Virus genome (UHGV): UHGV-0186543
Origin: a virus
DNA: 46,602 bases
Strand: one strand, 5' to 3'
Shown: positions 13,195-32,109 of the stretch, piece by piece
Numbering within the stretch: the stretch's first letter is position 1
Layout of the letters: each line of letters starts with the position of its first letter
Made by a program: the position numbers and the translations under genes
The notes under the pieces: generated by a model
What the model was told of the DNA's origin: nothing
The model's database searches: none
The model's input: the letters and a program-made list of their open reading frames with translations, nothing else

Positions 13195-14238
13195 TTACTC
13201 CAGAGACAGCCGAACCGAAAAGCCGTTTTCAGCAAGCGTCAGGCTCAGCGTGTTGATAGTCCAGTCCCGGTCCTCCTCGGTCCCGAATCCTTGAGTTGTG
13301 ACTTTGCATTCTGCTGTCAGCGACACTAAATCGAGCGTCGCTGGCGTCGTGTACGTCATAGAGAACTCTTTTTTAGCTGCACCGCCCTTAAGCCCTGGTG
13401 CAGCTTCTTTCGCTGCGTCGAGCGACGGCTCCACTGCTGGCCACTCGATTACAGGATCGCCGCCACTGCCTGTACGCAATTCTTTAATCTGCCCTGTTGC
13501 CGTATCGTGGTATTTGATCAGATACGTCGGCTCCGGATTTTCGCCACCGCCGCCACTATCACCGCTTTGTCCATTTCTCGAATAGCCCCAGCTGGAGTTA
13601 TCACGACGAGTTAGCGTGTAGTGCTGGAGCGGAGCACCGCTAACTGATTCGCCCGCGCCGCGCGGCAGAAATATCCAGTACCCTCCTGCGGGTTTGCTCA
13701 CCGCATCGAATCGTGTTGCTAGTCTCGACATCAGGTGCATATCTGACTCACCGACTTGATCGAGCTGCGTGATAATGTTGTCTGCAAACCGCTTTGATAC
13801 GCGAGGTTTTAGCCCGTTATCGCTCGCTATTGTTGCAACGATATTGCTGACAGTGACGTCGCTCCAGGAGCGAGTTTTTTTGCTCTGAACTGTCGGAGAG
13901 CCTTTTGATGCGTTCATCGGAGCTGCTTTTGCTGTGAAATCAACTACCCGGGGTTCACCGCCACTGCTCGCACCATCAACGATGTATACACCCTTATCAA
14001 TTATCTGATTACCGAAACCGAGCCCAATACTGATTTTTACTCCGCGGGCCGGAATTTTCAGAGTTTCAGAAACGATTGCTACGCGTAATTCGTCTGTCTG
14101 TTTACTCGAACCACCATAATCTGTGAGCGTGATATTGATCAAACCTTTTCTTATTTTATCCGTGATGTTTTCATTATCAGCAGATATATAAAAATTGGGC
14201 TTCCATGCTTCCACGCCAGTATTTACGTAATCACTCAT
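13195..14238 (-). CDS. P2 gpD-like tail protein (late control D family)
   Basis: 347-aa ORF at the distal end of a P2-ordered tail gene block (FI, FII, E, T, U, X, D). Confidence 0.55.
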   Translation of the reverse strand: MSDYVNTGVEAWKPNFYISADNENITDKIRKGLINITLTDYGGSSKQTDELRVAIVSETLKIPARGVKISIGLGFGNQIIDKGVYIVDGASSGGEPRVVDFTAKAAPMNASKGSPTVQSKKTRSWSDVTVSNIVATIASDNGLKPRVSKRFADNIITQLDQVGESDMHLMSRLATRFDAVSKPAGGYWIFLPRGAGESVSGAPLQHYTLTRRDNSSWGYSRNGQSGDSGGGGENPEPTYLIKYHDTATGQIKELRTGSGGDPVIEWPAVEPSLDAAKEAAPGLKGGAAKKEFSMTYTTPATLDLVSLTAECKVTTQGFGTEEDRDWTINTLSLTLAENGFSVRLSLE

Positions 14239-14241
14239 TCA

Positions 14242-14466
14242 TCAATCCCATAATTGCGTTTCTTTTTTAACCGGTTCGGGGTCGATTTCTGGTAAAACAA
14301 TTTTTTCTCCTGCACGAAACACGGCATACATATCCGTTACGCCGTAATTTAAAACCTGATATAACACGGTTTCTGTCGTTTTTGCTGTTCTCCCGTAGAC
14401 AGCAAGGCAGATCTGATCGAGACGGTCACCGTCCCGTGTAGTGTATGTAATCATTTGGGGCCCCAT
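14242..14466 (-). CDS. P2 gpX-like tail protein X
   Basis: 74-aa ORF; GDRLDQICLAVYGRT...TVLYQVL pattern resembles gpX family. Confidence 0.6.
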   Translation of the reverse strand: MGPQMITYTTRDGDRLDQICLAVYGRTAKTTETVLYQVLNYGVTDMYAVFRAGEKIVLPEIDPEPVKKETQLWD

Positions 14467-14485
14467 TAATTAAAAGGATTTCATA

Positions 14486-14620
14486 ATGAGAATTAATTTT
14501 AGTAGTCGGAGAGGTATTAGTATTTCGGCATCAAAAAAAATACCATCAGGTTGTTTTACATTTATGCTCGTAGTTTTTTTTATTATTTTTATACTTGTTA
14601 AGTGCTCTGATAGCGCTTGA
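14486..14620 (+). CDS. small hydrophobic peptide (44 aa) encoded antisense within the tail module; unverified
   Basis: ATG with AAGGA SD 7 nt upstream in a 160-nt AT-rich gap between tail genes; peptide MRINFSSRRGISISASKKIPSGCFTFMLVVFFIIFILVKCSDSA has one predicted TM segment; below the ORF-track length cutoff. Confidence 0.3.
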   Translation: MRINFSSRRGISISASKKIPSGCFTFMLVVFFIIFILVKCSDSA

Positions 14621-14627
14621 TTTTGTA

Positions 14628-15056
14628 TTAATCTAGCGAAGCTCCATAATATTCGAGCGTGAGTGAAAAGTCCTGCGATTTTGGGGTTCCGCCCATCAGA
14701 AAACTGTTTTGCGTTTCTGTTAACTCCCTGATAACCCAGTACCCCTTCACCTCCCCGGTCCCCAGCACCAGTTGCTGGGGTTCTCCCGAGTTCCCCAGTG
14801 CCCGCAAATCTGTTAACAAGCCAATGCCACACCCATCAAGGAATAACGCGTTTATTTTCCCATCGATCGTGATTGTGGGGTTCGGTCGTCCGGTTATCTG
14901 CAATGCGTCGTTTTTCCCGAATCGTGTTTGCTGAGCCCAGCGCCAGGCGTCACTACGTTGCAGTTTGTTGTACGCTACTGTTGATATAGCAAAAATGAAA
15001 TCACCCACGCCCAGCATGATATCCTCAGCACCGTTTATCGCATCACTCATTGTCAC
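14628..15056 (-). CDS. P2 gpU-like tail protein
   Basis: 142-aa ORF immediately downstream of tape measure gene, overlapping it by 4 nt. Confidence 0.5.
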   Translation of the reverse strand: MTMSDAINGAEDIMLGVGDFIFAISTVAYNKLQRSDAWRWAQQTRFGKNDALQITGRPNPTITIDGKINALFLDGCGIGLLTDLRALGNSGEPQQLVLGTGEVKGYWVIRELTETQNSFLMGGTPKSQDFSLTLEYYGASLD

Positions 15057-16693
15057 CCCGCCGCCGCTGGTTTATCAAACATCGCACCACGGTTGTACGA
15101 ACTCGCAACTTGTCTCAGCCCGTCGAGCACACCTGATGCAGCAGCCTGCTGTGTTGATTGTGGATCTGCCGCTCCGATAATATTGATTTCAATTTTATTG
15201 TTTTGCTCTGGCGCTGGAGTTGCGACTGCCTGTCTCAGCGCTTCAATATTCAACGTTGCTGAGTTTTGTGATTCAGGCGTTGAGTCTTTATTTATTAATC
15301 CAGTAAACGGGTTAGCAAATGAGAGCATTGATTCAGCCTGTGATTTTGCAGGCGCAAGACGCTCAGGGTGTCGCATATTATCTACGGCTTCGTCGGCTTT
15401 TGCTTTTGCTACATTATCTGCTGCCAGTCCTGGATTCGGTGAATATTTACCACCACTATCCATGAATTCCTGATACGCTTTATTATATTCTTCGTTATAT
15501 ACGCGCTGTTCCTCGTCTGTTTTCTCGTCCGGAATTAACCACTCAAGTTTTTTTGCTACTGCCCAAATTATTTTTCCGAATTTAACGCAAGCTTCGCCAA
15601 AACTGACTATCCCCTCCCACATTTTTTTCATGCTTTCGGGCTTTACCCACTCAGTAATTGTGTTGACAAATCCGCCCTGATTGTCCTTAAACCATGCTGT
15701 AAATGTTTCGCGTACTGAGTCAAACGTCGGCGCGAGTTCCCCCCCGATTTTACCGAGTGTATCTGCAAGCCCCGACGTAATAGAGCCCCACAGATTTGTC
15801 ACTGATACATGCGCACGCGCCGCTCCTTCCGCACCCTCTTTTGTTAACAGATTCGATTTTTGCGCGTCGGCCATTGTCTGTTCCCAACTTTTACCAGTGG
15901 CCTTCATATACGTCATGATTTTATTAGCTTCGCCCCCCATGAGCTGGTCAGCAAGACTCGCCGCTTGCTTCTCATCTTTCATTTCAGAGATGCGACGCAT
16001 AACCTCATTAAACTGTTTTTCCCGATCCCAGCCAGCCATTCGTTTTTTCGTCAGGCCGATTTGAAACAACATGGGATTCAGGTTTTTTTCGTTTCCGATT
16101 TCGCCGATTTTATTTGTAAGTTCTTCTGACAAATCCCCGATATTTTCGCCGTTAAGCCCGGCTGCTTTACCGATATTGTCCCACGCAGCGTATTTTTCGA
16201 CGCCAACCCCGTAGGACTTCGCCAGACCGAGTTTTTCTGACGTCTCTGCATTCATTGCCAGCGCACCAGCAGCAGCACCGCCGATGAGCCCCGCCGCGCC
16301 AAGTGTCCCCCATTTGATGCCTTTTCCTGTTGCCTTTATCGTTCTTGCAGTCGCTCCACCGCCCCATTTTGCAGCCCCTTTTGCGCGACCCGTCCACTTC
16401 TCCAGCCGTTGTTTTTTAGCAAGCTGAGTATTCAGCGCCTCCTGGTCCTGCGTTGTCGCTTTTATTCGACGGTCCAGCTTTTGATACTGAGCAGATAAAT
16501 CAGAAACGTCTTTACCTGCCAGTTTCATTGCTGCGATTTTGTCTTTTAATTTATCCTGACTTTTCGTTAATTTCCCGACAGTAGACGACGTCTGCCGAAT
16601 CGCATCATTGAGTTCTGTTGTACCGCGACGAAACGACGGGTCTATTCGCCCACCGAATACAACCTGCGTTTTAAAGTTTTGAGAAATAGCCAT
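15053..16693 (-). CDS. tail tape measure protein
   Basis: 546-aa ORF, Gly/Ala-rich and coiled-coil-like; position after tail chaperone gene. Confidence 0.8.
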   Translation of the reverse strand: MAISQNFKTQVVFGGRIDPSFRRGTTELNDAIRQTSSTVGKLTKSQDKLKDKIAAMKLAGKDVSDLSAQYQKLDRRIKATTQDQEALNTQLAKKQRLEKWTGRAKGAAKWGGGATARTIKATGKGIKWGTLGAAGLIGGAAAGALAMNAETSEKLGLAKSYGVGVEKYAAWDNIGKAAGLNGENIGDLSEELTNKIGEIGNEKNLNPMLFQIGLTKKRMAGWDREKQFNEVMRRISEMKDEKQAASLADQLMGGEANKIMTYMKATGKSWEQTMADAQKSNLLTKEGAEGAARAHVSVTNLWGSITSGLADTLGKIGGELAPTFDSVRETFTAWFKDNQGGFVNTITEWVKPESMKKMWEGIVSFGEACVKFGKIIWAVAKKLEWLIPDEKTDEEQRVYNEEYNKAYQEFMDSGGKYSPNPGLAADNVAKAKADEAVDNMRHPERLAPAKSQAESMLSFANPFTGLINKDSTPESQNSATLNIEALRQAVATPAPEQNNKIEINIIGAADPQSTQQAAASGVLDGLRQVASSYNRGAMFDKPAAAG

Positions 16694-16801
16694 CGATTTT
16701 CATGACCTCGTTTACATAGAAATTAAAAACCCGGTACGGCAGGTCCATTTGCGTATCGGGCGGGATGGCAAGTTTTTTCGCAATAAACGGAATCAGAATA
16801 A

Positions 16802-17083
16802 CTATATCTGATGTCTGTCTTTCGGGGGCTTTACCAGTTCGTTAAACGCAGCCTCCATTTGATCGTAATCGCACGCAGGCAGTGCATATAAATCCTCTCG
16901 ATCCAGATTTGCCAGGCGCGCCAGCATTGTCGCTGTCCGCTCTTCAAGACCACTTTTATCGTTACTGAACATAATGCGGTCGCGTAATTTTGGTTCGCGA
17001 ATAGTAATTGTATCGCGGCTCTCGCCCTTAATAATAAATGGTCGAGAGAGCGTAATAGTCATACTGTCTAATAATGATTCCAT
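16802..17083 (-). CDS. tail assembly chaperone (P2 gpE-like), with probable -1 frameshift extension (E') to about 16671
   Basis: 93-aa ORF between tube and tape measure genes; the -1 frame is open across the whole 108-nt gap to the tape measure start. Confidence 0.5.
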   Translation of the reverse strand: MESLLDSMTITLSRPFIIKGESRDTITIREPKLRDRIMFSNDKSGLEERTATMLARLANLDREDLYALPACDYDQMEAAFNELVKPPKDRHQI

Positions 17084-17095: not shown

Positions 17096-17608
17096 TTAAT
17101 ATACATGGAGGATTCGAGCAACGCCCGCAAGGACGTCAACACCATTAATTACTCGTTTCATTTTTGCTGGATGAATCTCGTAAATAATTTTTCCATTTTG
17201 AACTCGTTTATAATAACTCGGCGCAATCGTTACTGATTGCCCAACTGCTGATTTTGAATCAGTCCCCTGAGCGTCATCAGTGATTGCCGTAATAAGACCC
17301 TCGTAGGTATCAATACGCTCAAAATTTATTCCATAGGAGTCTGTGTACGCACTACGAATTTCAAACCGCGTCCTGACTCCCGGTATTAACCCGAAATAGC
17401 TCATAACACCAGAATCAGAACCAGAAACTTTAAAACTGGCTGACATTTTCTCCATCCCCCCATCCAGTGTTATGGCTGTATCCATCGAGCCTGTTTTAAA
17501 CTCGTCCTCAATTATTTTCATATCAACAGGAGTATATTCAGTACAATTTAAAACCCGTTCACCTTGCACGAATAGCGCAAACGCGCGGTAAGCGTTGCTA
17601 TCTGACAT
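17096..17608 (-). CDS. tail tube protein (P2 FII-like)
   Basis: 170-aa ORF directly downstream of sheath gene. Confidence 0.7.
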   Translation of the reverse strand: MSDSNAYRAFALFVQGERVLNCTEYTPVDMKIIEDEFKTGSMDTAITLDGGMEKMSASFKVSGSDSGVMSYFGLIPGVRTRFEIRSAYTDSYGINFERIDTYEGLITAITDDAQGTDSKSAVGQSVTIAPSYYKRVQNGKIIYEIHPAKMKRVINGVDVLAGVARILHVY

Positions 17609-17625: not shown

Positions 17626-19125
17626 TCAGGCTGTTTCTTTAAAAAGTGAGGCCAGTGCTTCAACTGTATAGTCATTATTAATGCGGTACATTAACGTAAT
17701 TGTTTGTGCCGGAGATTTCGGACCAAAATCAACATTAATATAAAGATTACCAGCGGCCAGACTTTCTTTTGTATTCAGCTCACCGTCTAACCACGCACGC
17801 CCTCCGTTAATCGCGCCCTGCTCCTCTAATTTGTGCAGATATGCGTTTATCGACTCGACAACGTCTGTTCCGAGGTGCAGGTCTATCGGACGATCAATAA
17901 AATCGGTCATCATTGCCCGGGCTATAGAATCCTCAATTACGTCAGCTGTTCGACGAACGCATTCAAAGGACCATTGGGGACTGAGGCTACACAGATAGTT
18001 ACCCCAGTGCCGGAACCCGTCATAGCGAATAATTGTGCTGACCTGACTGGCGTTCAACAGGTTCGCTGTGCAGTTTGTCTCACCAATAATAAAATCGTCG
18101 ACTTGTTCAAGCCCCGTAACTCCGTAGATGTTTTGGTTCGATTTACTCCACCAGAATCCTTTTTCATTATCAATTCTGGCTCGTAAACCAGCAGCGATAG
18201 CTGAATACGGACGAGATAACCCACTAACATCGCTCGTAGAATAAACACGAGGGCGCAGAATTTCCATTCTGCCGCCGTACCTCTGACGACGATTCACAAC
18301 GTCAGCAGGCGTAGCGCCTCGCGGTGAATCGATATACCCAACACCTCGTAATTTATTTGTCACCACTTCAAGTTGTTCAGCGATATAATCGTTAGCACTA
18401 TAATCTGGAGCAATTAAAATTCTCGGAGTCACTTGATTTATTTGTGCAGACGTCAACAATGCGTTAATCCCGTTAACGACGTTCTGCCTCATTTTTGTTT
18501 CGTCGTTGTCTTCTTCAACGCGGACAACAACAATAATAGCGTCATCCTGATTTAGTATTTCAGATACAGCGGGAGGAAGGGTGCCAGACCCACCGAGCAA
18601 TCCAGCTTTTTTCTGACTGCCTGCAATTACCGTCGGAATATTATATTTGAACGATTCGTCTTTGCCACCTGATAAATTTGTTGGAGGAAGAGCGAACACA
18701 GTCCCCGTTCCTGCGTGATCACCACCGAATGTGACATTAATATATTCCCCGATTTGTAGCCCTTCTTTATACTGCTGGTTCTGATCATACATTTTTGACG
18801 GAGTCATCGCGCCGTCTGTAAGCATTGTCAATTTTCTCGATCCGTCAGGCAGTGTACTATATCCTGGAGTTGCTACATTCCCGTTAATACCGAGATTGAC
18901 GATTTCGACAATCCAGTTGTTTCCGTCGGCCCCTGGCGTGACAGTTGAAAACTGAACAAGATTATCTGCGAGTTCAGATCCCCATAGTAGTGATGCGCAT
19001 GTTGGGGCGCTCGCATCCGGGGCCGTGCCGACGATACCGATAACGGAAATATCGACCGTGCTGATCTCTTTTGTTCCGTCGTCGTATTCGAGCGTGCGTG
19101 GGCCGTGCAAAAAATTAGTGCTCAT
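17626..19125 (-). CDS. contractile tail sheath protein (P2 FI-like)
   Basis: 499-aa ORF, size and order typical of myovirus sheath proteins. Confidence 0.8.
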   Translation of the reverse strand: MSTNFLHGPRTLEYDDGTKEISTVDISVIGIVGTAPDASAPTCASLLWGSELADNLVQFSTVTPGADGNNWIVEIVNLGINGNVATPGYSTLPDGSRKLTMLTDGAMTPSKMYDQNQQYKEGLQIGEYINVTFGGDHAGTGTVFALPPTNLSGGKDESFKYNIPTVIAGSQKKAGLLGGSGTLPPAVSEILNQDDAIIVVVRVEEDNDETKMRQNVVNGINALLTSAQINQVTPRILIAPDYSANDYIAEQLEVVTNKLRGVGYIDSPRGATPADVVNRRQRYGGRMEILRPRVYSTSDVSGLSRPYSAIAAGLRARIDNEKGFWWSKSNQNIYGVTGLEQVDDFIIGETNCTANLLNASQVSTIIRYDGFRHWGNYLCSLSPQWSFECVRRTADVIEDSIARAMMTDFIDRPIDLHLGTDVVESINAYLHKLEEQGAINGGRAWLDGELNTKESLAAGNLYINVDFGPKSPAQTITLMYRINNDYTVEALASLFKETA

Positions 19126-19130
19126 TTATT

Positions 19131-19364
19131 TTACTCTCCTGATTCGATTATAATTGGAGCCACATATTCAGCAACATCACCAAATTCACCGGCCACAGCT
19201 CGCCCGTATAGATTTCTACCGTATAATGTGGAATCGGTTTTAGATGCGGTAAATAAAATATCACTACCGATACCTCTGATATCACAATTAATATCAATAC
19301 TATTGCCTGATGTGCTAGAATAACGCGGTAATTTTATATTTGAAAAATCATCATCTTTAAACAT
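19131..19364 (-). CDS. hypothetical small protein, possibly tail fibre-associated
   Basis: 77-aa ORF between tail fibre and sheath genes, the position of a fibre assembly factor in P2. Confidence 0.3.
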   Translation of the reverse strand: MFKDDDFSNIKLPRYSSTSGNSIDINCDIRGIGSDILFTASKTDSTLYGRNLYGRAVAGEFGDVAEYVAPIIIESGE

Positions 19365-19369
19365 TTTAT

Positions 19370-20323
19370 TTAGGCCACTCTAATGAAATTTGTTGCAAAA
19401 CTCGCTGTAAAAATATCTTCGGCATTACCGTCTGTCGGTTCGGAACTCGACGGCATATACCCTGAGAGCGCCCACAGGCCAGGCAGGGATTCTGCTGAAA
19501 ATCCTATACTAATAATAACGTCGCTAATTAACTGCGCATTTCGTCTATATGTATACGCAGGAAAAATCAATGAACCTGCAATAGTATCCCCGGGTTTATA
19601 GTGCATAACAGTCTCGTTACTAAATCCAAATCCTGCATAAACAACTGAGCCGACAGCTGCAAACGCAGGCACCACCGGTGCAGGGTCATCGTTAGCATCA
19701 ATTAAATTGTCAATGTCTTCTTTGGTGTAATAATCATCAAGATTGACGCCGATATTTTCCCGCGCCGTTTTTTGCGCCGCCGCGCCTTTATCTTTGATTT
19801 CAGATAAATTTTTGCTTATCTGCAAATAACGCTTATCTGCATCTGTCTGACTAATTCCACTACTATTATCAATAATAACGTTAACAGTAGACGTGCTGGA
19901 CACCGCGAGTGTGTATTTATACGTGATTGAAATCAACGCACCGTTACTGTCCGTCGGTTTCAAAATATCCGGTGAACGTGCAACTGAGTACAGCTCCCCT
20001 TTATCTGTTAATATCCCCACCTCGCGGATGGTATAACCGCCGGTTTCCGGCGGTACGTACAGTGTAAAAATGACCTGATTACCGCTATTTTCTGACGATT
20101 TAATATCTCCGCGATACGTCTCGTGAATTAATGCTGTTCGGGCCGGGTCTGGCGTCACGTCGCCGTTTCCGTTTGCGTCACCAATAACGAATTTATTCAG
20201 CACCACGGGTACACCCGATGCCAGCGCAGCGGCTTCAAGTTGCGCCCCCCGGTCTGTCAGCACCGCATAAACCTGGCTCGCGCTCACTTTCAGATTTGAT
20301 TTTAATTTAGCCATTAGGTCCAA
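19370..20323 (-). CDS. tail fibre protein with N-terminal tail-collar domain (short P2 gpH-like)
   Basis: 317-aa ORF; N-terminal region (VIGDANG...TIREVGILTDKGELYSVARSP...IDNSSG) resembles phage tail-collar fibre domain. Confidence 0.55.
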   Translation of the reverse strand: MDLMAKLKSNLKVSASQVYAVLTDRGAQLEAAALASGVPVVLNKFVIGDANGNGDVTPDPARTALIHETYRGDIKSSENSGNQVIFTLYVPPETGGYTIREVGILTDKGELYSVARSPDILKPTDSNGALISITYKYTLAVSSTSTVNVIIDNSSGISQTDADKRYLQISKNLSEIKDKGAAAQKTARENIGVNLDDYYTKEDIDNLIDANDDPAPVVPAFAAVGSVVYAGFGFSNETVMHYKPGDTIAGSLIFPAYTYRRNAQLISDVIISIGFSAESLPGLWALSGYMPSSSEPTDGNAEDIFTASFATNFIRVA

Positions 20324-20933
20324 TCTCCACTAACAGACTCACAATTGGTGAGCCTGATATATATAATCCGCCATTTAATTTCACGCCACCATCACCATCG
20401 GCTGGTATATCAACATCCAATTTTGCGTAAGGACTTCCGGCAATAAAAAACTCACCGTCAACACCTGTTTCGAAATTTATTTCCTTTAATAATGAACGAC
20501 AATTTTTTGCATCAAATATTTGTGCAATAAATGTATTCAATAGCTCTAAATCTAACCCCATACTTTTTAGCAGATATATTTTAATTGCGAATGTATACGG
20601 GTCGTCCCTGGGTGTGGCTTCAAACCACTCTCTCATTTTGCTCTCAAATCCAACTGTTAATAACGCTCGTTCAACAGCTCCACGCGTTCCGCGGTGCTTG
20701 TTCTGCCACGCAGCTGCTTTAATAATTTCGCGTTTTTGCTGCTCGCTCCAGTCGGGGTTCCAGTAGGTGACGGCGTATTCCCACGCCAACCACGGCAACA
20801 GATTTGCAGGACACAAATCGGGATTTTTAATAATTCGAATATCGCCAGGCAGATCGCCAACGTGAGATAAAACAGATTCCAGCGCTCTCTCGGGGGTTAT
20901 TGCGTTCGGAGGCAGTACGCTTTGACTTGTCAT
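20307..20933 (-). CDS. tail protein I (P2 gpI-like)
   Basis: 208-aa ORF with LLPWLAWEYAVTYW...EQQKREIIK pattern. Confidence 0.6.
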   Translation of the reverse strand: MTSQSVLPPNAITPERALESVLSHVGDLPGDIRIIKNPDLCPANLLPWLAWEYAVTYWNPDWSEQQKREIIKAAAWQNKHRGTRGAVERALLTVGFESKMREWFEATPRDDPYTFAIKIYLLKSMGLDLELLNTFIAQIFDAKNCRSLLKEINFETGVDGEFFIAGSPYAKLDVDIPADGDGGVKLNGGLYISGSPIVSLLVEIGPNG

Positions 20934-23616: not shown

Positions 23617-24317
23617 AATCGTTTCCCTGTTTTTGGGTCTACGTGGACATTACCTTTCACGCGACCACGCAAGTCCTGTTCAAAAAAACCTATGAACACG
23701 GTGCCAATGTTTTCAAAAATATAATCATCGATAGCATCCTCCAGCGCTTCGTGCACCGGTACGCGAGCCTCTTCGATTCCTCCGCGAGCCAGTCGAATCC
23801 AGACACTTTTCGCACCGTAGCGTTTCGCTACGAATGAATCGGGCCAGCTCATCATCGCCAGCCCCGCGCTCCTGGGGGTAAACGTTGCGCCGCGAGCGCC
23901 TTTTTTTGTTTTCAAAAACAGACCGGTCTCAGGATCGCGAGGCTGTTTTTGCCTCCGTGGATTTTGTAATCGCCCCTTTAGCTCAGATACCCGGAAATCA
24001 TTCAGACCGTACCAGAGCTTGGCGCTGCTCAGGTCTCCTGCAGTTTCTTTTGATATGTTCCGGATTTTGACGAACGGTTTTACGCGTTTTTCTGCGGCCT
24101 TACGCCCTTTAACCGCCAGCGATTCGATGATCATTCCCACCGAGACCCGGTGCATATGTTTTGCAGTTCGGTTCAGTGCCCTGTTGTATGCCATTAACAT
24201 TTGATGTTGCGTCGCGCTGATTTCGACTCTGAGCTGCTCCAGCGCCGAAACATCGATATCGAACATCTGCGCGTTACTACGTAAATCAGCCACGGTTCCC
24301 CCCTTAAGTGGGACCAC
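23613..24317 (-). CDS. putative tail completion or head-tail connector protein
   Basis: 234-aa ORF; position only. Confidence 0.3.
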   Translation of the reverse strand: MVPLKGGTVADLRSNAQMFDIDVSALEQLRVEISATQHQMLMAYNRALNRTAKHMHRVSVGMIIESLAVKGRKAAEKRVKPFVKIRNISKETAGDLSSAKLWYGLNDFRVSELKGRLQNPRRQKQPRDPETGLFLKTKKGARGATFTPRSAGLAMMSWPDSFVAKRYGAKSVWIRLARGGIEEARVPVHEALEDAIDDYIFENIGTVFIGFFEQDLRGRVKGNVHVDPKTGKRL

Positions 24318-24325
24318 GGTCCCAC

Positions 24326-24706
24326 TTAGTATTTTGAATACTCGCTGTTTTCGCTGGACGTATGAGGCTCTAAAAAAATATTCGTGAGCCCGACGCCGTC
24401 TGCTTGTGGCTCTTTAACTACGTAATCGGTCCAGCCAGACCAGGTAACAGAGCCGTCAGCAGCGATACTGCGCTGCTTTGGGACCTGGACAACGTCACGC
24501 GCAACAACGCCAGCGACGTCGTCTGAGAGCGCCGTCAGGCTCGTTACTGTACCGGTAATAAAACCGGCATGAGGAACGTCAACGCGCGCGTAAGGCTCGT
24601 TAAAAATAGCGATAACGGGGTCGGTTTTACCGCCTAATTTGATTGGCCGTCCCCACTCACGAATCATCTCTTCGTCGCCAGCCCGGAGGTCATCGTAGTA
24701 GCTCAT
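24326..24706 (-). CDS. head-tail joining protein (lambda FII-like), tentative
   Basis: 126-aa ORF following FI-like gene, lambda gene order. Confidence 0.45.
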   Translation of the reverse strand: MSYYDDLRAGDEEMIREWGRPIKLGGKTDPVIAIFNEPYARVDVPHAGFITGTVTSLTALSDDVAGVVARDVVQVPKQRSIAADGSVTWSGWTDYVVKEPQADGVGLTNIFLEPHTSSENSEYSKY

Positions 24707-25122
24707 AGAGCGTAAACGTGACCAGCTGCGATGAGGTCTGCGACTTCAGGCGAATCGACAATAATTTCACGGCCTTCGGCAACAATCTCGCGAACACGAC
24801 GCCCGTTCACGTAGTGATAAATATCCAGTGTGTTACGCAGCTTTACGCGACGCGTAATTAATGCGATTTTCTGCTCTTGTGACTGTGAAACGATGGTGCT
24901 CGTAATTGATTGAGCGAGATCGCTATCAGTCCCGGGCGCAGTATTCACCGCGATCTCGATGCCTCCCGCGTCACCAGATTGCTCATTCAGAATATCGAGC
25001 TCTGACTCAGCACCGGCGACGATTGATTCAAGTTCCGCAGTAGTCCCGCTACGCGGTAATTCGCGACCGAGCTGTGCGCTCAGATCGTCGATTCTCGCCA
25101 GCAATTCTGTTTTTGTGCTCAT
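24703..25122 (-). CDS. DNA packaging protein FI-like
   Basis: 139-aa ORF; N-terminus MSTKTELLARIDDLSAQLGRE parallels lambda gpFI MTKDELIARLRSLGEQLNRD. Confidence 0.65.
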   Translation of the reverse strand: MSTKTELLARIDDLSAQLGRELPRSGTTAELESIVAGAESELDILNEQSGDAGGIEIAVNTAPGTDSDLAQSITSTIVSQSQEQKIALITRRVKLRNTLDIYHYVNGRRVREIVAEGREIIVDSPEVADLIAAGHVYAL

Positions 25123-25156
25123 GTTGATTCCTTAACAAAAAAGAGCCTTTCGGCTC

Positions 25157-26191
25157 TTACGCGATTTTTACGACAACGAACGCGTCGGCATCCGTGAGGA
25201 CCATTGCTGGCGCGGATTGCGTCATTGTTTGCGTCACTGCCGGATCACCGGTAGTGGTCCAGACTTTTGGATAGCGCGTCGCTTCGCAAATACCCTCTTT
25301 CAAAGCGTCTTCGTCCTGGATTGCGCCATAAGTGCGGAGTCCGCGATTTTTTGTGTTGCCCAAAATCATCGTGCTATCCGGCATATAACGCTTTTCAGTG
25401 CCTGTCTCTGGATCGATGTATTGTCCTTTGTAGACAAACAACGCTGTGTCGCCGTAATAGCCCTTAAAGCTAACGACGTCGCCCAGGTTTTTCAGCGCGA
25501 CTTCGAGCTGGCTGTTTGAGCCACGGCGCGTATCCAGTGCCGTCCAGAACTTTTTAAAACGCTTCAACTGCTTCCAGGCTTTACCATCCATAATGATGAC
25601 GTTAACAGCACCGGATGCAAGGTCCGCATAAGATTCGATATCGTCGCTCGGGTCATACGTTTCCGCATCCTGAGTCGACCAAGCTGTCGAACCGGACTGA
25701 GTGACGTTATTCGTCGCGCTGCGGCTCATGTCGATCTCATAGGTCTCGATATTGCTGCCGGAAACTGTGTATTTACCGTACAGAACAGCCTGTACCGCCT
25801 GATATTCTTCGAGCTGGCTGATGCTCAGTTCCTCATCGAGCAGGTTCTGCATGATGAGTTTGGCGCGACGAATTACGGGAGTTAATGGCTCACTAATCGG
25901 CTCTCCGCCGGCGCGCTTGATGCTCATATTCGGATTGATCGTGTGTTTCGGCTTCGTGTAACCCGGTTTGAAATGGTTCGTTGAATAGCCGCGAGTGCGG
26001 TCAACTTTGCCGGTGATCATCGGCGCGCAGTACACAGCCATATTCACTTTTCCCGGGATTTTATCCAGAAAAACCTCTTCGCTCGTAAACGTGTATGTCT
26101 CACGGAAAAAAAGTCTTAAAAATAACGGATTGAACTTAAATACCTGCTGTGTCGCGGTAATGAGTTCTGACGTAGTAAACGAATCGCTCAT
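25157..26191 (-). CDS. E: major capsid protein (lambda gpE family)
   Basis: 344-aa ORF; extensive similarity to recalled lambda gpE (FKFNPLFLRLFFRE, KPKH, DTRRGSNS, RGLRTYG, TTGDPA). Confidence 0.9.
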   Translation of the reverse strand: MSDSFTTSELITATQQVFKFNPLFLRLFFRETYTFTSEEVFLDKIPGKVNMAVYCAPMITGKVDRTRGYSTNHFKPGYTKPKHTINPNMSIKRAGGEPISEPLTPVIRRAKLIMQNLLDEELSISQLEEYQAVQAVLYGKYTVSGSNIETYEIDMSRSATNNVTQSGSTAWSTQDAETYDPSDDIESYADLASGAVNVIIMDGKAWKQLKRFKKFWTALDTRRGSNSQLEVALKNLGDVVSFKGYYGDTALFVYKGQYIDPETGTEKRYMPDSTMILGNTKNRGLRTYGAIQDEDALKEGICEATRYPKVWTTTGDPAVTQTMTQSAPAMVLTDADAFVVVKIA

Positions 26192-26250
26192 TTATATATC
26201 CTGTATAAAAAAACCGCCCGGAGGCGGCTTGTTTTGAGTTTTTTTTGCTA

Positions 26251-26580
26251 TCAGCCGACGCTGACTGGCGTACCCGCAAACGCTGATTTGCGTTTAGCTA
26301 CGTCGGTAACAGTACCCCAGTTAATCGCCGTATAACGGAACGAGCCTGATTTGTAGTACGAGCAGTCTGCAGAACTTGCACCAGTGTTTACCGCTGTTGC
26401 CGTCAACCCAATGGCCTTTCCTACTGAACCATCCCAGACCTTGAGCGTCCCAACGCTTGTATCGAGCATAATCGGAGTCAATCGTGGAACGTTGATCCCA
26501 CCCTGAAAATGGCCAATAGTCGTAACAACAAGATCTGGACCCAGAATAAAATCGTCCGGACTGTATGTTTCAGTTGTCAT
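26251..26580 (-). CDS. D: head decoration protein (lambda gpD family)
   Basis: 109-aa ORF; LTPIMLDTS...LKVWDG...YYKSGSFRY...AFAGT matches lambda gpD pattern. Confidence 0.85.
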   Translation of the reverse strand: MTTETYSPDDFILGPDLVVTTIGHFQGGINVPRLTPIMLDTSVGTLKVWDGSVGKAIGLTATAVNTGASSADCSYYKSGSFRYTAINWGTVTDVAKRKSAFAGTPVSVG

Positions 26581-27890
26581 TATTCATCCCCTAAAATTGA
26601 ACGCCCTGCCGCGACGAGCATCGAGACGTTTGCGGTTGTTCCTATTACCGTCGTGCTGCCGGCATCCTGAATAGTCGCCGGTGATTCAGTGCTCATTAGT
26701 GTATCGAGCGCCGTTTCTGTCCGCGCCTGCGCCGTTTGCGGTGCTGCCGCAAGGACCACCTGTGCCTGTTCGACGGTCATCCCGGGGACGCCGGCGAGCG
26801 CTTTTGCCTGCGCCTCGCGCCCGACCGCTTCGGGACAATTGATGATGGCCATCACGCGCGCCAGTTCGCTCGATGCGGCGTCCGCGCGAATCTGCTCCGT
26901 GTTGAACTCAACCGGCGCGTCCGTAGTCGTGGTCGCGGTTTGTTCTGTGGTCGTGGTCTCCGCCGTGGTTTCTGTTGTACCTGGCATAAATCGCTCCATT
27001 TTTGGTTTCAGTGCGTCGGCCATAACTGCGATAGCGTCCGCGTAATTAACGAGTTGATCAGCGAGACCAGATTTAATCGCGTCCGCGCCGATAAATACTG
27101 CAGCTTCCGTGGCCAGCACCCTGGATTTTTTCAGCCCGGTATAATCCGAGACTTTTTGCGCGAACTGCTCGCGCGTGCTGTTAATACTCAGCTGGAATTC
27201 GTCGCGAACGTCGTCGGGCAGCTGGGAATACGGGTTCCCGTCGACTTTGTGCGCGCCGGCGTAAATCAGCGTCACGTCAACGCCGGCAATCTCCAGCGCC
27301 TTTTCGACGCAGCGGTGAGCCATCAGGACACCAATTGAACCAACCGTGCCGGTCTGCGTTATCAGCCGGCGCGAACACGCTGACGCCAGCAAATATGCGG
27401 CGCTGCAGGCCGTATCGCTGGCCAGCGCCCACACCGGTTTTTGCTCTCGCGCCCGGGCGATTAAATCAGCGGTATCAAACGCGCCGGCGACCTCACCACC
27501 TGGGGAGTCAATATCCAGCAAAATCCCCTTAACATCGGGATCAGAAATCGCCTGCTGCAGGCGTTTTACGATTCCGTCGTAACCGCTCATACCGCTAACC
27601 GGATTGATATAACCCAATTTATGAACCAGTGTCCCGGTAACCGGCAGAACAGCTATACCACGCTCCACGCGGTACGATTTCTGACGTGTTCGCTCGCTGC
27701 TGTCCCACCCCATCGCGAGGGCGTTCATTTCGTCGCTGTTCATTACCTCTCCAGACGCTGTATCAATCAGTCGCCCGGTACCGAACCGGTCGCTCAGCGC
27801 AGAAAAAAATACCCGCGCGTAGGCGGGCTCCAGCAAAAGCGGTTGATTGAACGCCCTGGCGGCGAGGTGCGGAAAATTGTTCCACGGCAT
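26580..27890 (-). CDS. C: head maturation protease/scaffold (lambda gpC-like, ClpP/S49 fold)
   Basis: 436-aa ORF between portal and decoration genes, lambda order and size. Confidence 0.75.
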   Translation of the reverse strand: MPWNNFPHLAARAFNQPLLLEPAYARVFFSALSDRFGTGRLIDTASGEVMNSDEMNALAMGWDSSERTRQKSYRVERGIAVLPVTGTLVHKLGYINPVSGMSGYDGIVKRLQQAISDPDVKGILLDIDSPGGEVAGAFDTADLIARAREQKPVWALASDTACSAAYLLASACSRRLITQTGTVGSIGVLMAHRCVEKALEIAGVDVTLIYAGAHKVDGNPYSQLPDDVRDEFQLSINSTREQFAQKVSDYTGLKKSRVLATEAAVFIGADAIKSGLADQLVNYADAIAVMADALKPKMERFMPGTTETTAETTTTEQTATTTTDAPVEFNTEQIRADAASSELARVMAIINCPEAVGREAQAKALAGVPGMTVEQAQVVLAAAPQTAQARTETALDTLMSTESPATIQDAGSTTVIGTTANVSMLVAAGRSILGDE

Positions 27891-29464
27891 CAGTTACCTC
27901 CCCAGCCGTTATCGTTGGTATTTGAGGGGTGAGATACAGACCATGACGGTTCGCTCAGCCCCATTTCACGCCGGCGCTGAATTTCGTATTCCTGTTGCTC
28001 CATAACCTCTTCGTAGTCCTGCCCCTGCAGCGCTAGTTCGTTCTGATACGTACTGAGGCCGGTTGTGATTCGCATGGCACTCTCCTGGACCTCTTTCAGC
28101 CCATCGATAGCCATACGGCCAGCGCCGATCCAGAGAGAGTTAGTCCAAGAGTTCCGCGCCTCGTAAAACGACCGAACCGCGGAGCGGGGCAGAGTGATAA
28201 TCCCGCGCGCCAGCGCCTCCTCAAACCAGCAGCAAAACATCAGTGACGCCTGGCGCGCAGCGATAAAACGTCGACGCCCCATAAAAAATCGCCAGCTCAC
28301 GTTCGCGCTAGCGCGTGCGCTGGAGTAACTGACCTGACTGTAGTCCCGGCTCAGTTCCTCATATGACGCTCCGACGCCGGCAGCAACGTAACGCAGGAGT
28401 GATTTTTCCAGTGAACTAAAACCAGCGTCAGCGTTCTGAGCGGTCTGTAAACTGAGTTTGTCGCCAGGGTGCAGGTGAGGAACTTTCACGCCACCGAGCT
28501 TGATATTTGCGCCGTTGTAGTACGTCACGTAACTCTGAATAAACGAATTCAGCGGGTTCGAGTCGATATCAGTACCCGCGCCGGCGATATATTCAAACGC
28601 CTGCTGGCTGTCGAGCTCTGATTCGATTGTCGCGGCATACATCGCCTTCACAATGGCGCTCTGCAGTTGTGTTTGCTGCAGCGTGTCGAGCATTTTCAGA
28701 CGCTCCATCACGCTGTAGAAAATGTTGTCGCCTCGGGTTTGCCCATCCTCGAGCGGCTCGAATATGTGAATGAATGCGTGTCTGCCGCTGCTGAGCTGCG
28801 CTGGTATACGCCGGCACTTGCCGACTCCACCGAGTGGATAGGTGTCCTCGGCTATCCAGTAGCCCACTGCGGCTCCATTTTTATCAATATCAACACCGGC
28901 GCGGCGAAATTGAGTGTCAGCTGCGTAACCGGGGTTTCGAATTCGTTTCGGTGAGATCATTTTGAATCGCGTCCGAAAAACGCTGCCAGCACTGCTTTCC
29001 CAGACCGGTTGTACGCAGGTTTCACCATTAAACGCGTGAGTTGCCACGCCCTCGCGGATCATCATTGTGAACGTCCGTTTCCGCTCGATATCAATCGTGC
29101 AGTGAGGGTCCTCAGCGTATTCAGTCCACGCTACTTCGACGTCACGCGCCAGCGCCCTGGCGTCCTCGCGGGATATCCCGAGGTAACGCCAGTTAGGGCG
29201 ATAACTCAACTTAAACAGATTGCCGACGATATGATCCTGGTGCAGCTGCACGGCGTTCGATGCAACGCCGTTATTGCGAACGAGATCGTCTGCTCGCGCG
29301 TTACCGCGATAAAAATTTGGCAGCAGTGCTGCGTCGGCGCTCTGCTGTGGTGCGTTCCAGTCAATCAGCTGGCCACCGAAACCGGGACCGCCGCCGTTAT
29401 ACCCCGCGTAACGGCGTAGTGGCGTTTTACCGTCAGGCCCGAGCAGCTGCTGCTGAGCAGTCAT
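27890..29464 (-). CDS. B: portal protein (lambda gpB-like)
   Basis: 524-aa ORF in portal position and size. Confidence 0.85.
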   Translation of the reverse strand: MTAQQQLLGPDGKTPLRRYAGYNGGGPGFGGQLIDWNAPQQSADAALLPNFYRGNARADDLVRNNGVASNAVQLHQDHIVGNLFKLSYRPNWRYLGISREDARALARDVEVAWTEYAEDPHCTIDIERKRTFTMMIREGVATHAFNGETCVQPVWESSAGSVFRTRFKMISPKRIRNPGYAADTQFRRAGVDIDKNGAAVGYWIAEDTYPLGGVGKCRRIPAQLSSGRHAFIHIFEPLEDGQTRGDNIFYSVMERLKMLDTLQQTQLQSAIVKAMYAATIESELDSQQAFEYIAGAGTDIDSNPLNSFIQSYVTYYNGANIKLGGVKVPHLHPGDKLSLQTAQNADAGFSSLEKSLLRYVAAGVGASYEELSRDYSQVSYSSARASANVSWRFFMGRRRFIAARQASLMFCCWFEEALARGIITLPRSAVRSFYEARNSWTNSLWIGAGRMAIDGLKEVQESAMRITTGLSTYQNELALQGQDYEEVMEQQEYEIQRRREMGLSEPSWSVSHPSNTNDNGWGGN

Positions 29465-29694
29465 AATCGAACTCCCACGGGACGGCGGCGTCCCGTACTC
29501 AGACCGAGCTGTGATTTCAGCTCGATGATGTACGTTCGGAGCTGCTCAATACTCGACTGGGAGTACTGATAGCTCCGGTTATTTCCTGCTGAATCGCCGT
29601 GAGACAGCGACACGGTCGATTTACCCGTTAATAATTTGTGCAGAGCGATTTCCGCTTCCAGCAGTCGTTCCGTTAAAACCTCGCGCGACGTCAT
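29461..29694 (-). CDS. W: head-tail joining protein W (lambda gpW-like)
   Basis: 77-aa ORF; LLEAEIALHKLLTGK...YIIELKSQLG parallels lambda gpW. Confidence 0.75.
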   Translation of the reverse strand: MTSREVLTERLLEAEIALHKLLTGKSTVSLSHGDSAGNNRSYQYSQSSIEQLRTYIIELKSQLGLSTGRRRPVGVRL

Positions 29695-31655
29695 TAGCTC
29701 CCTCCGAGCATTCTCGCCATCTCCTCGAGAGACAGTTTGTTTTGTGATTTTTTCCGTTGCTCAGCGAGCGTCTCGAGATTGAGCTGGAAACGAATTTTAC
29801 TGATACGCAGCGCTGCCAGCCCGTACACCCAACAGTCGAGCGCCTCATTTCGCCGGCCCTGGTTGTCCCAGCGATAAACGACGCGACCGTTAATGAGTTT
29901 CGGGATCAGTACCTCGGAGACGAGCTGCTTTGCTTCTGTCGTGCCGAATATTTCGTCGTCGTTGGGAAAATGAATCGCACCTGGTGTCGCCGATTTAGAG
30001 TCAGGTTCCAGCTGCAGGCGCATCGCGAGCAAATCTTTTGCCGTGTCAGTACCGATTAACGATAAATAAACTTTATTCGCGTTACGGGTACGCGGCATAT
30101 TTACGACCGGCTGGCCGTATGAGCTCGCGCCTTTGATCGGAATGACCCACAGCGGACCGAGTTTCAGCGAGCGGTTATAAACGACCTGCGCGTCTATACC
30201 ACCGGTATCCCACGCCCAGCGACTGACACCGATTGTGGTCCCGTCGCTGCGCCGGTATTGTTTGCGAATGACACCGTCGACGCGCTGCAGCGTGTCCTCC
30301 TCGTCGTAGCGACCGAGGACGATTGTTTTATCAATCAACCAGCACTCTTCCTCGGCTCCCCAGCCCCATACGTAACACTCGTAGCGCCCGGACGTCTGAG
30401 AGTCGATGCCACCGGTCAGATAAACAACACCGTCAGGAACCTGGCTGGCGTATTTTTCCCGGCGATTAACGAGAATATCGTGCTCCAGCTGCTCGCTGGC
30501 TACGTCGCTCCAGAGTTCGCCGAGCGTCGTGTTATGAAACGTCTTCTCCTTGAGCGGGTCACCTTTCGCTTTCAGCCACTCGCTGACAATCTCGCCCCAG
30601 CCGTCGAGATTCAGTGAATACAGGGCGTTTATCACGATCGCCGCGTGTTTCGGCGCGCGAACGACGCCACCGTCGTGATCAAAAAAATGAATGCCGTCCC
30701 GCGTCCAGGTGCAGTCCTCTGCTATCCAGCGCCCCGCGAGCTCCATTTTTTCGAGATCGCGATAGTAAAAATGCTCAGGACAGTGGCAGCACTGGTAATA
30801 CGCGGACGACGATTTCGCCTCATTGGTCTGTAAGCTGTTATCCCATTTGAGGCCGTATTCGATACCGTCGAAACCAAATACCAGGACCTGCTCCTCGCCA
30901 CAATGAGGGCATTTCAGGTAAAAACGAAACGTCAGATCGGCGGCATCCTCCAGCATTTCGATATGACTTTTGCCGGTAACGGTCGGCGTCGAACCAAAAA
31001 TCGCCTTCGGGTACGCTGCCCCTTTAATTCGAACGAGCGCCATTTCGATGGGCGAGCCCTCGCCTTTGCCTTTTTTGGCAACTTCCAGCGGCCAGCCGTC
31101 AACTTCGTCACCCTCGACAACCTGTTTCGTTAGTCGCCGGAAATTTCCTGGTGCACTCGCGCCGCGAAAATCAAGAATCGCGCCGCTCATTTCTTTACGC
31201 TGGAGATTGTTACGCTCGTTGCTTTTATCCCAGTCGGGGAAAATTTTCTGAATCACCGGCATTTCGGCGATAGCGGGGTCAACCTCGTCGGCGACAAACC
31301 CATCCGATTCGTCATCGATAGGCTGATAGACCACGGCACTACGTTTTTTGTGCTCAGCGAAATAGAGCAGCGCCGCGACGAGTATTTTTGTATAACCGAG
31401 ACGAGCTGATTTGCGAACAGACACGATTTTTATCACGTCGTTAGTCATCATATTGAGCATCACTACCTGGACCGGCTGAGTCGTCCAGTGGCCAGCGATG
31501 TGGCTGGAGCCCTCAGGGAGATAAAAATGTTTATCAGCCCACTCAACCCCCGTCATCGGTATCGTCACGCGCAAGGGATTCAACCCTGTCGAGATCGCGT
31601 TCGATATCGCTGACATCGTAATCGCTGAAGTCGACTCGTATGTCTGCCAGTTCAT
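29694..31655 (-). CDS. A: terminase large subunit (lambda gpA family); start uncertain (31556 or 31616 also possible)
   Basis: 653-aa ORF with VEWAD..YLP, VRKSARLGY, CPHCGEEQ, NTTLGE, WDTGGID motifs as in lambda gpA; annotated start overlaps small subunit by 113 nt. Confidence 0.9.
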   Translation of the reverse strand: MNWQTYESTSAITMSAISNAISTGLNPLRVTIPMTGVEWADKHFYLPEGSSHIAGHWTTQPVQVVMLNMMTNDVIKIVSVRKSARLGYTKILVAALLYFAEHKKRSAVVYQPIDDESDGFVADEVDPAIAEMPVIQKIFPDWDKSNERNNLQRKEMSGAILDFRGASAPGNFRRLTKQVVEGDEVDGWPLEVAKKGKGEGSPIEMALVRIKGAAYPKAIFGSTPTVTGKSHIEMLEDAADLTFRFYLKCPHCGEEQVLVFGFDGIEYGLKWDNSLQTNEAKSSSAYYQCCHCPEHFYYRDLEKMELAGRWIAEDCTWTRDGIHFFDHDGGVVRAPKHAAIVINALYSLNLDGWGEIVSEWLKAKGDPLKEKTFHNTTLGELWSDVASEQLEHDILVNRREKYASQVPDGVVYLTGGIDSQTSGRYECYVWGWGAEEECWLIDKTIVLGRYDEEDTLQRVDGVIRKQYRRSDGTTIGVSRWAWDTGGIDAQVVYNRSLKLGPLWVIPIKGASSYGQPVVNMPRTRNANKVYLSLIGTDTAKDLLAMRLQLEPDSKSATPGAIHFPNDDEIFGTTEAKQLVSEVLIPKLINGRVVYRWDNQGRRNEALDCWVYGLAALRISKIRFQLNLETLAEQRKKSQNKLSLEEMARMLGGS

Positions 31656-32109
31656 TCAGGGCTATCGCCAGCTCCTCTCGTAATACACTGCTCGCCTCCT
31701 GCGGCATTTCAGGCCACACCTTTTTCAATCGTGGTGGCCACGACTCGACGCGGGTACGTAATTCAACGGCGACGCGAGATACAGCGACGCTAATTAATTC
31801 AATTGGCGCGTAGCGTTTAGCGAGAATGCGGCGTTTTACTCGTGCCATCAGGATTCGCTCCTGTCGTTCCTCATTTTTCAGCCACTGCTCGCGATTTTTT
31901 TCGGGAGAATTGTCCCCCGCTTCCGGTTCGTCTGTACCAATTGTGTCGCGTCTATTGCTCCGGAGATAATGAATATAAAAATGGCGCCAGGCATCAAGGT
32001 CCCAATCGCCACGTCCTTGGGGGACTGGAGCTCCCGGAAGTTTTGCGAGATCGCGCAGACGACGATCAGATAGCAGTAAATGTGCTGCAACCTCAGCCTG
32101 ACTTGCCAT
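31543..32109 (-). CDS. Nu1: terminase small subunit (lambda Nu1-like)
   Basis: 188-aa ORF directly upstream of large terminase; N-terminal HTH-like region followed by G.PV..G motif. Confidence 0.6.
   Translation of the reverse strand: MASQAEVAAHLLLSDRRLRDLAKLPGAPVPQGRGDWDLDAWRHFYIHYLRSNRRDTIGTDEPEAGDNSPEKNREQWLKNEERQERILMARVKRRILAKRYAPIELISVAVSRVAVELRTRVESWPPRLKKVWPEMPQEASSVLREELAIALNELADIRVDFSDYDVSDIERDLDRVESLARDDTDDGG

Follow-up and report, generated by a model that had tools for sequence, protein, structure and literature searches.

The virus genome UHGV-0186543, a stretch of 46,602 nucleotides that we analysed as a whole (the window), contains a virion gene array in which head and packaging genes of the lambda type are joined to a contractile tail of the P2 type. 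This union within one late array had been proposed from the sequence alone, and it is borne out by Pfam, PHROG and pairwise identities. 24 close-packed open reading frames (ORFs), all intact and all on the minus strand, fill positions 13195–32109. Read from 32109 to 13195, the array begins with ten lambda-type genes (Nu1, A, W, B, C, D, E, FI, FII and Z) and continues with fourteen contractile-tail genes. Based on gene content, gene order, family membership, intactness and distribution, we regard the window, with a probability of about 0.88, as a complete, apparently intact temperate lambdoid phage of ~46.6 kb in circularly permuted form, whose head follows the lambda pathway and whose tail follows the pathway of P2 and the R-pyocins. 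The combination of a lambda-type head with a contractile tail is real, but it has been published before, and the phage is an ordinary, intact representative of a class of lambdoid myoviruses that is widespread and has been described already. New here are the names for two genes at the junction of the modules, the placement of the switch at the tail terminator, the match in gene order to the R-pyocin cassette and the block-wise pattern of the mosaic.

Head and neck genes and the position of the switch

From Nu1 to Z, the window has the ten head and neck genes of lambda in the same order and from the same families, and each head gene that the sequence-only reading had named, from Nu1 to FII, was confirmed. 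The small terminase subunit of the lambda Nu1 family (31543–32109) matches phrog_57 over its full length (E 8.8e-40), a PHROG common to it and to lambda Nu1 (E 1.3e-76). It has no Pfam match, and BLASTP aligned it with lambda Nu1 in the C-terminal 51 aa only (E 2e-4). The large terminase subunit of the gpA type (29694–31655) contains the Pfam domains GpA_ATPase (PF05876, E 1e-46) and GpA_nuclease (PF20454, E 6e-64) and is 43% identical to lambda A; its true start may lie further downstream, the homologue in the Escherichia coli record vB_EcoM-705R4 being annotated at 620 aa. The gpW head-tail adaptor (Ad1, 29461–29694; Pfam gpW, E 1.5e-15; 35% identity to lambda W) belongs to phrog_75, which it shares with lambda W. 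The portal of the lambda B family (27890–29464; Phage_portal_2, PF05136, E 4e-91) is 63% identical to its lambda counterpart, and the S49 prohead protease of the lambda C type (26580–27890; Peptidase_S49, PF01343, E 3e-38) 55%. The head decoration protein of the gpD type (26251–26580) is 42% identical to lambda D and matches HDPD (PF02924, E 6e-7) at 30.0 bits against a cut-off of 29.1. The major capsid protein of the gpE type (25157–26191; Phage_cap_E, PF03864, E 4e-58) shares 57% identity with the capsid proteins of lambda and N15 across 99% of its length.

Both remaining head genes are recognised through families that include their lambda namesakes: the FI DNA-packaging chaperone (24703–25122; Pfam Packaging_FI, E 8.5e-9; phrog_92) and the FII head-closure and tail-attachment protein (Hc1, 24326–24706; Pfam Phage_attach, E 5.7e-9; phrog_82). 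In pairwise comparison FII reached E 0.013 with lambda FII and E 4e-8 with its counterpart in the Vibrio phage Valp1. The likeness of Nu1, FI and FII to lambda is thus one of profiles only; pairwise, the divergence is beyond or near detection, as it is for Z. GC-rich hairpins with T-runs flank the capsid gene on the coding strand, one directly upstream (26211–26230) and one directly downstream (25141–25158), and may stabilise or attenuate mRNA within the late transcript.

Two proteins that follow FII (23080–24317) had been described as unassigned and as candidate adaptors between the two module types. Both have families. The one next to FII belongs to phrog_27, the PHROG of lambda gpZ, so that the lambda-type block, recognised correctly through FII, continues one gene further than the earlier reading had placed its end. 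The whole of this putative tail completion protein (Ne1, 226 aa, 23613–24293) aligns with phrog_27, whose label is "tail completion or Neck1 protein" (E 9e-42); for lambda gpZ the match to that PHROG has E 3e-69. The longest ORF begins at 24317 and would encode 234 aa; homologues have 226 aa, and comparison with them makes 24293 the likely start. Its Valp1 orthologue (35% identity) gives a near full-length, sub-threshold match to Pfam Minor_tail_Z (E 7e-4). A profile search of the PDB sequences gave no match for the 226-aa protein; according to PMC11784142, no structure of any tail completion protein had been solved by the time that paper was written.

The second protein (178 aa, 23080–23616) does lie at the interface of the modules, but it is, judging from its family, a conventional tail terminator (Tc1) of the R2-pyocin collar type. 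It belongs to phrog_1072, and its sole match among PDB sequences is the R2-pyocin collar PA0615 (E 0.02 with the single sequence). With a profile built from ten homologues the match to PA0615 improved to E 8.6e-4, with a nearly full-length alignment, and PA0615 itself matches phrog_1072 with residues 22–167 (E 1.3e-43). In length and position, directly upstream of V, the protein is what a PA0615 homologue of ~170–190 aa would be. PA0615 was taken as the equivalent of the terminator or cap in a preprint on the P2 cryo-EM structure. The AF2 model of the 178-aa protein is poor (pLDDT 54.5) and was used as supporting evidence only. For this family, a profile search of 1.84 billion cluster representatives returned 120 members at E ≤ 1e-3, mostly of 170–190 aa.

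Pfam gave no match for either junction protein up to E 10. The 178-aa protein is not in the P2 gpR family: Pfam P2_Phage_GpR was absent, and direct hhalign against R gave nothing. Likewise, no signal emerged when the two junction families were compared directly by hhalign with lambda Z and U and with P2 R and S, which included the 178-aa family against lambda gpU. These hhalign results weigh little against homology because the profiles had little depth (Neff ~2) and were aligned to only one sequence per target.

Taken together, the family assignments divide the array into a lambda-type block of ten genes (Nu1 to Z) and a contractile-tail block of fourteen genes (collar to D), and on the sequence evidence the switch falls exactly where lambda has gpU. 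Novel adaptor proteins at the junction were considered and are rejected, as each of the two proteins has its place in an established neck family. Nor is a special adaptor required, since siphoviruses and myoviruses have the neck plan of W, FII, Z and terminator in common; PMC11784142 describes what the terminator and the gpZ-type tail completion protein do. The lambda neck plan accordingly takes either tail type, and the terminator alone changes. All this matters little for discovery and somewhat for annotation: both junction genes and phrog_1072 can now be named. Both genes are "hypothetical" in RefSeq/GenBank (WP_000015611.1 and WP_000774515.1; E24377A locus 13184–13720 and 12507–13187), and phrog_1072 is still labelled "unknown function" despite its match to the structurally solved PA0615.

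Contractile tail and proposed assembly

Homology searches did not reassign the tail genes to a siphovirus type; instead, the Pfam families of sheath, tube and baseplate proteins were confirmed. Behind the collar lie the gpV-type baseplate spike (22197–23114; Phage_base_V, PF04717; 35% identity to P2 V across 117 aa), the gpW/gp25-type baseplate wedge (21853–22194; GPW_gp25, PF04965, E 8e-17; 36% identity to P2 W), the gpJ-type wedge (20936–21856; Baseplate_J, PF04865; 40% identity to P2 J; PA0618 at E 9e-59) and the gpI-type baseplate protein (20307–20933; Tail_P2_I, PF09684, E 2e-37; 34% identity to P2 I). After the fibre and a small ORF come the tail sheath (17626–19125; Phage_sheath_1 and Phage_sheath_1C, PF04984 and PF17482; PA0622 at E 3e-48), the tail tube (17096–17608; Phage_tube, PF04985, E 5e-22; PA0623 at E 2e-15), which is related to the P2 tube by Pfam and matches it weakly in direct comparison, and the tail assembly chaperone E (16802–17083; Phage_TAC_7, PF10109, E 2.5e-15). 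The 546-aa tape measure protein (15053–16693) was assigned by position and size; it matches phrog_3654 (E 4.5e-248), has no Pfam match and is 34–35% identical to the tape measure proteins of Chris1, yong2 and Valp1. The block ends with the gpU-type (14628–15056; Phage_P2_GpU, PF06995, E 4e-32; 35% identity to P2 U) and gpX-type (14242–14466; Phage_tail_X, PF05489, E 9e-16; 40% identity to P2 X) tail proteins and the gpD-type baseplate hub (13195–14238). For the hub, phrog_52 (E 3e-92) and BLASTP against P2 D (E 6e-25, 26% identity) support the assignment; Pfam Phage_GPD remained below threshold.

The sheath is 35% identical to P2 FI and closer to the sheaths of yong2 (46.5%), Chris1 (45.5%) and Valp1 (41.4%). 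Relative to P2 FI and the R2-pyocin sheath it has an insertion of ~115 residues (residues ~43–157), probably an additional surface domain. This insertion is probably shared by the sheaths of yong2, Chris1 and Valp1, which align with the window sheath over nearly their full length.

The sequence-only reading had placed the tail genes in P2 order. The genes it listed, V/W/J/I, fibre, sheath, tube, E/E', tape measure, U, X and D, are all present, but their order fits that of the R-pyocin: collar, V, W, J, I, fibre, small ORF, sheath, tube, E, T, U, X and D correspond by position to the 14-gene R2-pyocin cassette PA0615–PA0628, with the sheath (PA0622) eighth in both. The remaining tail genes presumably pair one to one with the other genes of that cluster. 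R2 pyocin also provides the nearest solved structures, namely PA0615 for the collar, PA0618 for the J-type wedge, PA0622 for the sheath and PA0623 for the tube. It differs from the window in having no head, no FII or Z and no DNA, and in its shorter sheath.

P2 shares with the window the contractile pathway, with a chaperone that is predicted to be frameshifted in the window too, and the homology, at 26–40% identity, extends to V, W, J, I, the fibre N-terminus, FI, E/E', U, X and D. However, in P2 the X gene lies in the O operon beside the lysis genes, R and S lie upstream of V, and fun(Z) lies between G and FI. The P2 head genes Q, P, O, N, M and L, the terminator R and the completion protein S have no counterpart in the window; tblastn of the window's head and neck proteins against the P2 genome gave no match. 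Lambda departs from the window at the other side of the junction: there gpU comes next, and then the genes of a non-contractile tail (V, G/T, H, M, L, K, I, J). Counterparts of lambda U, V and H–J are absent from the window, and no window protein from FI onward matches lambda at E ≤ 0.01 (tblastn).

The chaperone gene may be extended by a frameshift as in P2. The −1 frame across the gap between E and the tape measure gene is open from 16841 to 16671 (56 codons), and this E' extension (16671–16841) overlaps the start of the tape measure gene. A motif, ..M(D/E)LP..(F/L)..F, is common to the E' of the window, P2 E' and small ORFs that yong2 and Valp1 carry at that position. The E' reading frame is, at the level of the sequence, real; the slip itself would take place within 16841–16805, where the sole homopolymer is a C5 at 16828–16824.

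The 317-aa tail fibre (19370–20323) combines a conserved N-terminus of the collar-fibre kind (Pfam Phage_tail_fib, residues 16–155) with a swapped C-terminal cassette. Next to it, a 77-aa ORF (19131–19364) takes the position of the fibre-assembly gene (P2 G). It matches the N-terminal parts only of phrog_1795 and phrog_1141, is 46% identical to the first 68 aa of a 129-aa protein of 705R4 and may be a truncated fibre chaperone; its GC content is 0.355 and its GC content at third codon positions (GC3) 0.22. DNA homology to 705R4 ends at ~19797 and restarts at 19127, the only non-homologous stretch of the virion module. The fibre C-terminus and the 77-aa ORF are low in GC and non-homologous to the cassettes of 705R4 or E24377A. 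A further small ORF lies in the 161-bp gap between U and X: 44 aa with a hydrophobic segment, antisense to the array (14486–14620, plus strand) and with no PHROG match. At the same place, 705R4 carries a 44-aa hypothetical protein and E24377A a protein annotated as "superinfection immunity protein".

From these genes we infer the steps of assembly, the contact between FII and the terminator, the frameshift site and the tail length. The head would be made and filled by the lambda pathway, with Nu1 and A as terminase, B as portal, C as protease, E as capsid protein, D as decoration protein and FI as chaperone, and the filled head would then be closed by gpW and gpFII. Separately, the tail would be assembled by the pathway of P2 and the R-pyocins: V, W, J, I and D would form the baseplate together with U and X, the fibre would be attached, and the tape measure protein would be held by E and the frameshifted E+E' while tube and sheath polymerise around it. 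A hexamer of the PA0615-type terminator is predicted to halt polymerisation and to cap tube and sheath. The gpZ-family protein would then complete the tail, and the terminator ring would serve as the docking surface on gpFII. Scaled from Valp1, whose 596-aa tape measure accompanies a 90 nm tail, the predicted tail length is ~82 nm (range roughly 80–90 nm).

The junction genes overlap or abut, and promoter-like sites number 12 across the virion array as compared with 22.9 expected by chance. The array fits a single Q-dependent late transcript, unlike the separate late operons of P2: P2 distributes its tail genes over operons with their own activator-binding sites, whereas the window has one uninterrupted array after a lambda-type Q.

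Relatives, age of the mosaic and alternative explanations

The same architecture recurs in phages at very different distances. In E. coli, prophages of the E24377A/SE11 type and the records vB_EcoM-705R4, -720R5, -569R10 and -783R5 have a virion module collinear with that of the window at 92–93% DNA identity; most of the proteins are 89–99% identical, and the lambdoid setting and the cargo island are shared as well. The window differs from 705R4 and E24377A in the cassette that forms the fibre C-terminus and the next ORF (19127–19797) and in its intact portal and D genes. The E24377A portal is split by an element of the IS21 family (E24377A locus 5215–8915), and D of 705R4 is annotated in two pieces (24251–25295). 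All four GenBank "phage" records are prophages predicted by PHASTER and owe their myovirus label to homology only.

The synteny comparison with other phages that combine a lambda-type head with a myovirus tail agrees with the proposed joint, as the order head – FII – Z – collar – V is the same in Valp1 and in Burkholderia vB_HM795. Valp1 shares the whole virion order from small terminase to D, including the Z-type and collar-type genes and the succession of V, W, J, I, fibre, sheath, tube, E, T, U, X and D; identities are 46% for Nu1, 59% for A, 49% for the portal, 35% for the Z-like protein, 28% for the collar and 41% for the sheath. In transmission electron microscopy, the head of Valp1 measures 60 nm and its contractile tail 90 nm (PMC11054321); Valp1 is, by analogy, the best available experimental proxy for the phage of the window. 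Phages of the VHML/HAP-1/VP882 group carry P2-like tail genes in an otherwise lambda- or N15-like genome (PMC2771037, PMC10612066). VHML, VP58.5, MAR and HAP-1 as well as Valp1 have a protelomerase and parA/parB, typical of linear-plasmid (telomere) prophages, a state that for Valp1 is predicted only. The window differs from them in having a tyrosine integrase and chromosomally integrated relatives; no protelomerase turned up in it, although no dedicated search was made. Citrobacter Chris1, Hafnia yong2 and E. coli Bas97 have the same joint on a related head type with a fused protease-capsid gene.

Lambda-like packaging and head genes together with P2-like baseplate and tail genes have also been described for Wolbachia WO and for Xylella XfP1 and XfP2 (PMC3235987). 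In the gene table published for WORiC, a lambda-family portal is followed further on by minor tail protein Z, a hypothetical protein, baseplate V and eventually U, X and D (PMC3235987). The likeness of WO to the window is one between gene tables; the sequences are very distant, and the host of WO is an obligate intracellular alphaproteobacterium. In a tblastn search of the phage collection, PA0615-like collars were found in Wolbachia WO, vB_HM795, Mica, phiRSP, the ep3/ECO1230-10/Bas97 group, Arya, MQ-4 and some Vibrio phages. The Peduoviridae records of the collection searched, for which the inclusion of phiCTX was not confirmed, yielded none. Collars of the phrog_1072 type thus occur in lambda-head myoviruses and in the R-pyocin with no P2-like record found, and this bears on the origin of the R-pyocin. 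It is tempting, if rather doubtful at present, to regard the phrog_1072 collar as the signature terminator of a large unnamed supergroup in which heads with a gpA-type terminase and a lambda-type portal are combined with P2-like tails, and to derive the R-pyocin collar, perhaps the whole of PA0615–PA0628, from such a myovirus. If this were true, the supergroup would span this E. coli prophage, the VHML-like phages, WO, the ep3/Bas97-like phages, Mica and phiRSP, and vB_HM795; the R-pyocin collar would originate from a lambda-head myovirus rather than a P2-like phage; and the FI/FII boundary would be a natural exchange point at which head types are swapped onto one conserved neck-plus-tail block.

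The mosaic has a block-wise pattern. GC3 is 0.60 in the head genes from W to E, ~0.51 in FI/FII and in Z and the terminator, and 0.44 in the tail genes from V to D, while the difference between head and tail does not exceed 0.04 in Valp1, yong2 and lambda. By tblastn, Nu1 finds its nearest relative in Valp1 (46%) and no match in lambda or yong2/Chris1, and A is closest to Valp1 (59%) as compared with lambda (43%) and yong2/Chris1 (27%). The W, B, C, D and E proteins show 35–63% identity to lambda. For B, C and E the Valp1 values are 49%, 37% and 34%; the portal is 21–22% identical to those of yong2 (21%) and Chris1, in which the capsid protein has no match. Portal, protease, D and E are nearer to lambda than to Valp1. 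The head block is itself a mosaic, its terminase genes (29694–32109) being nearer to Valp1 and the genes from W to E (25157–29694) nearer to lambda. The comparisons indicate that head blocks were exchanged on a conserved neck-plus-tail block over long time scales, so that the mosaicism is deep and no recent joint is involved. The architecture is old because the FII – Z – collar – V joint recurs in Vibrio and Burkholderia phages and PA0615-like proteins occur in WO.

The fall in GC3 from head to tail, and a portal and capsid protein far closer to lambda (63% and 57%) than to Valp1, could suggest a different history: a recent hybrid, formed in E. coli between a lambda-like siphovirus and a P2-like myovirus, with the junction proteins as newly recruited adaptors. 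We consider this very unlikely and largely refuted already. The joint occurs in the Vibrio and Burkholderia phages at 28–38% identity, and the distribution of PA0615-like proteins reaches Wolbachia WO, so that the joint must be old; the junction proteins are members of established neck families; and identity to 705R4 runs evenly, at 89–98%, straight through the junction without a break. Nor are the supposed parents close. Megablast matched the DNA of the window to lambda over only ~150 bp in the portal gene, to which blastn adds patches of 65–68% identity, and P2 proteins are no more than 26–40% identical. The same compositional step might be expected if an assembly had fused two prophages, but an artefact of this kind is practically negligible as an explanation and already refuted as a candidate: 446 of 5426 complete E. 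coli genomes contain the junction, as do the four GenBank prophage records and phages of other genera that were isolated independently.

Less easily dismissed, though still unlikely, is a defective prophage or tailocin-like remnant that yields no infectious myovirus particles despite its complete-looking gene set. Relatives are often damaged, as the IS21 insertion in the E24377A portal and the split D of 705R4 illustrate, and in the window the fibre-associated ORF is cut to a length of 77 aa, while a foreign cassette of low GC content makes up the tip of the fibre. On the other hand, every virion ORF of the window is of full length in comparison with its homologues; genes for head, lysis, Q, replication, repressor and integrase are all present; and the circular permutation of the prophage order, with an intact attP, is the form expected of an excised or packaged genome.

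We thus favour a complete lambdoid myovirus of old mosaic architecture, but several points weigh against it. The phage and its close E. coli relatives are known from genes alone, with no imaged particle, and the vB_EcoM names rest on PHASTER homology. The cos site was not located, though no search for cosN, cosB or cosQ was made upstream of Nu1 (32110–32990). The 226-aa protein gave nothing against lambda Z by BLASTP or direct hhalign, and a Foldseek search of the PDB with its AF2 model (pLDDT 76.6) gave no match with E < 0.38; its probable place in the gpZ family follows from the shared PHROG profile and the one sub-threshold Pfam match through Valp1, which is good but indirect support. The E/E' slip site is without a canonical X XXY YYZ heptamer. 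Finally, adsorption competence is uncertain because the fibre, at 317 aa, is short and the chaperone position is taken by an ORF of only 77 aa.

Genome setting and distribution

Junction DNA was found in 449 of 5426 complete E. coli genomes (~8%), among them E24377A and SE11, at 90–95% identity and always on the chromosome; 446 of the 5426 carry the DNA of the FI-to-V junction at a coverage of at least 80%. The findings could be of use in classifying this type of prophage in the ~8% of complete E. coli genomes and in engineering head- or tail-swapped phages. In E. coli TUM13936, positions 37800–46602 of the window run contiguously into positions 1–12387. Since the ends of the window are permuted in this way, attP should lie near 12387/12388, between the integrase gene (11155–12201) and a lipoprotein gene (12609–13028). 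Nearly every E. coli genome has a short match of at least 99% identity within positions 1–13200, which may be the att core.

Other genes of the window belong to a temperate lambdoid phage as well. An HTH repressor (6240–6653) faces a Cro of the P22 type (5974–6171), and a DnaB helicase, the integrase, holins and an endolysin are also encoded. After the Q antiterminator (35200–35871), and before the lysis genes, comes a tR'-like hairpin. This terminator-like hairpin with a 10-bp stem (35112–35135, minus strand) lies between Q and the first holin-like gene (34704–35087), the position of tR' in lambda. tRNA genes were not found in the window.

A low-GC island (38300–46460, GC 0.34–0.45) lies on the opposite, plus strand between a nin-like region and the DUF1367 and Q genes. 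Genes for a LEM-3-like GIY-YIG protein, an HNH endonuclease and an LprI-family protein lie here together with several for hypothetical proteins, and a 455-aa ORF on the minus strand (40573–41940) is found inside the island. The island could be defence or moron cargo. Six E. coli genomes carry it at 99.2% identity, as against only ~94% in their virion genes.

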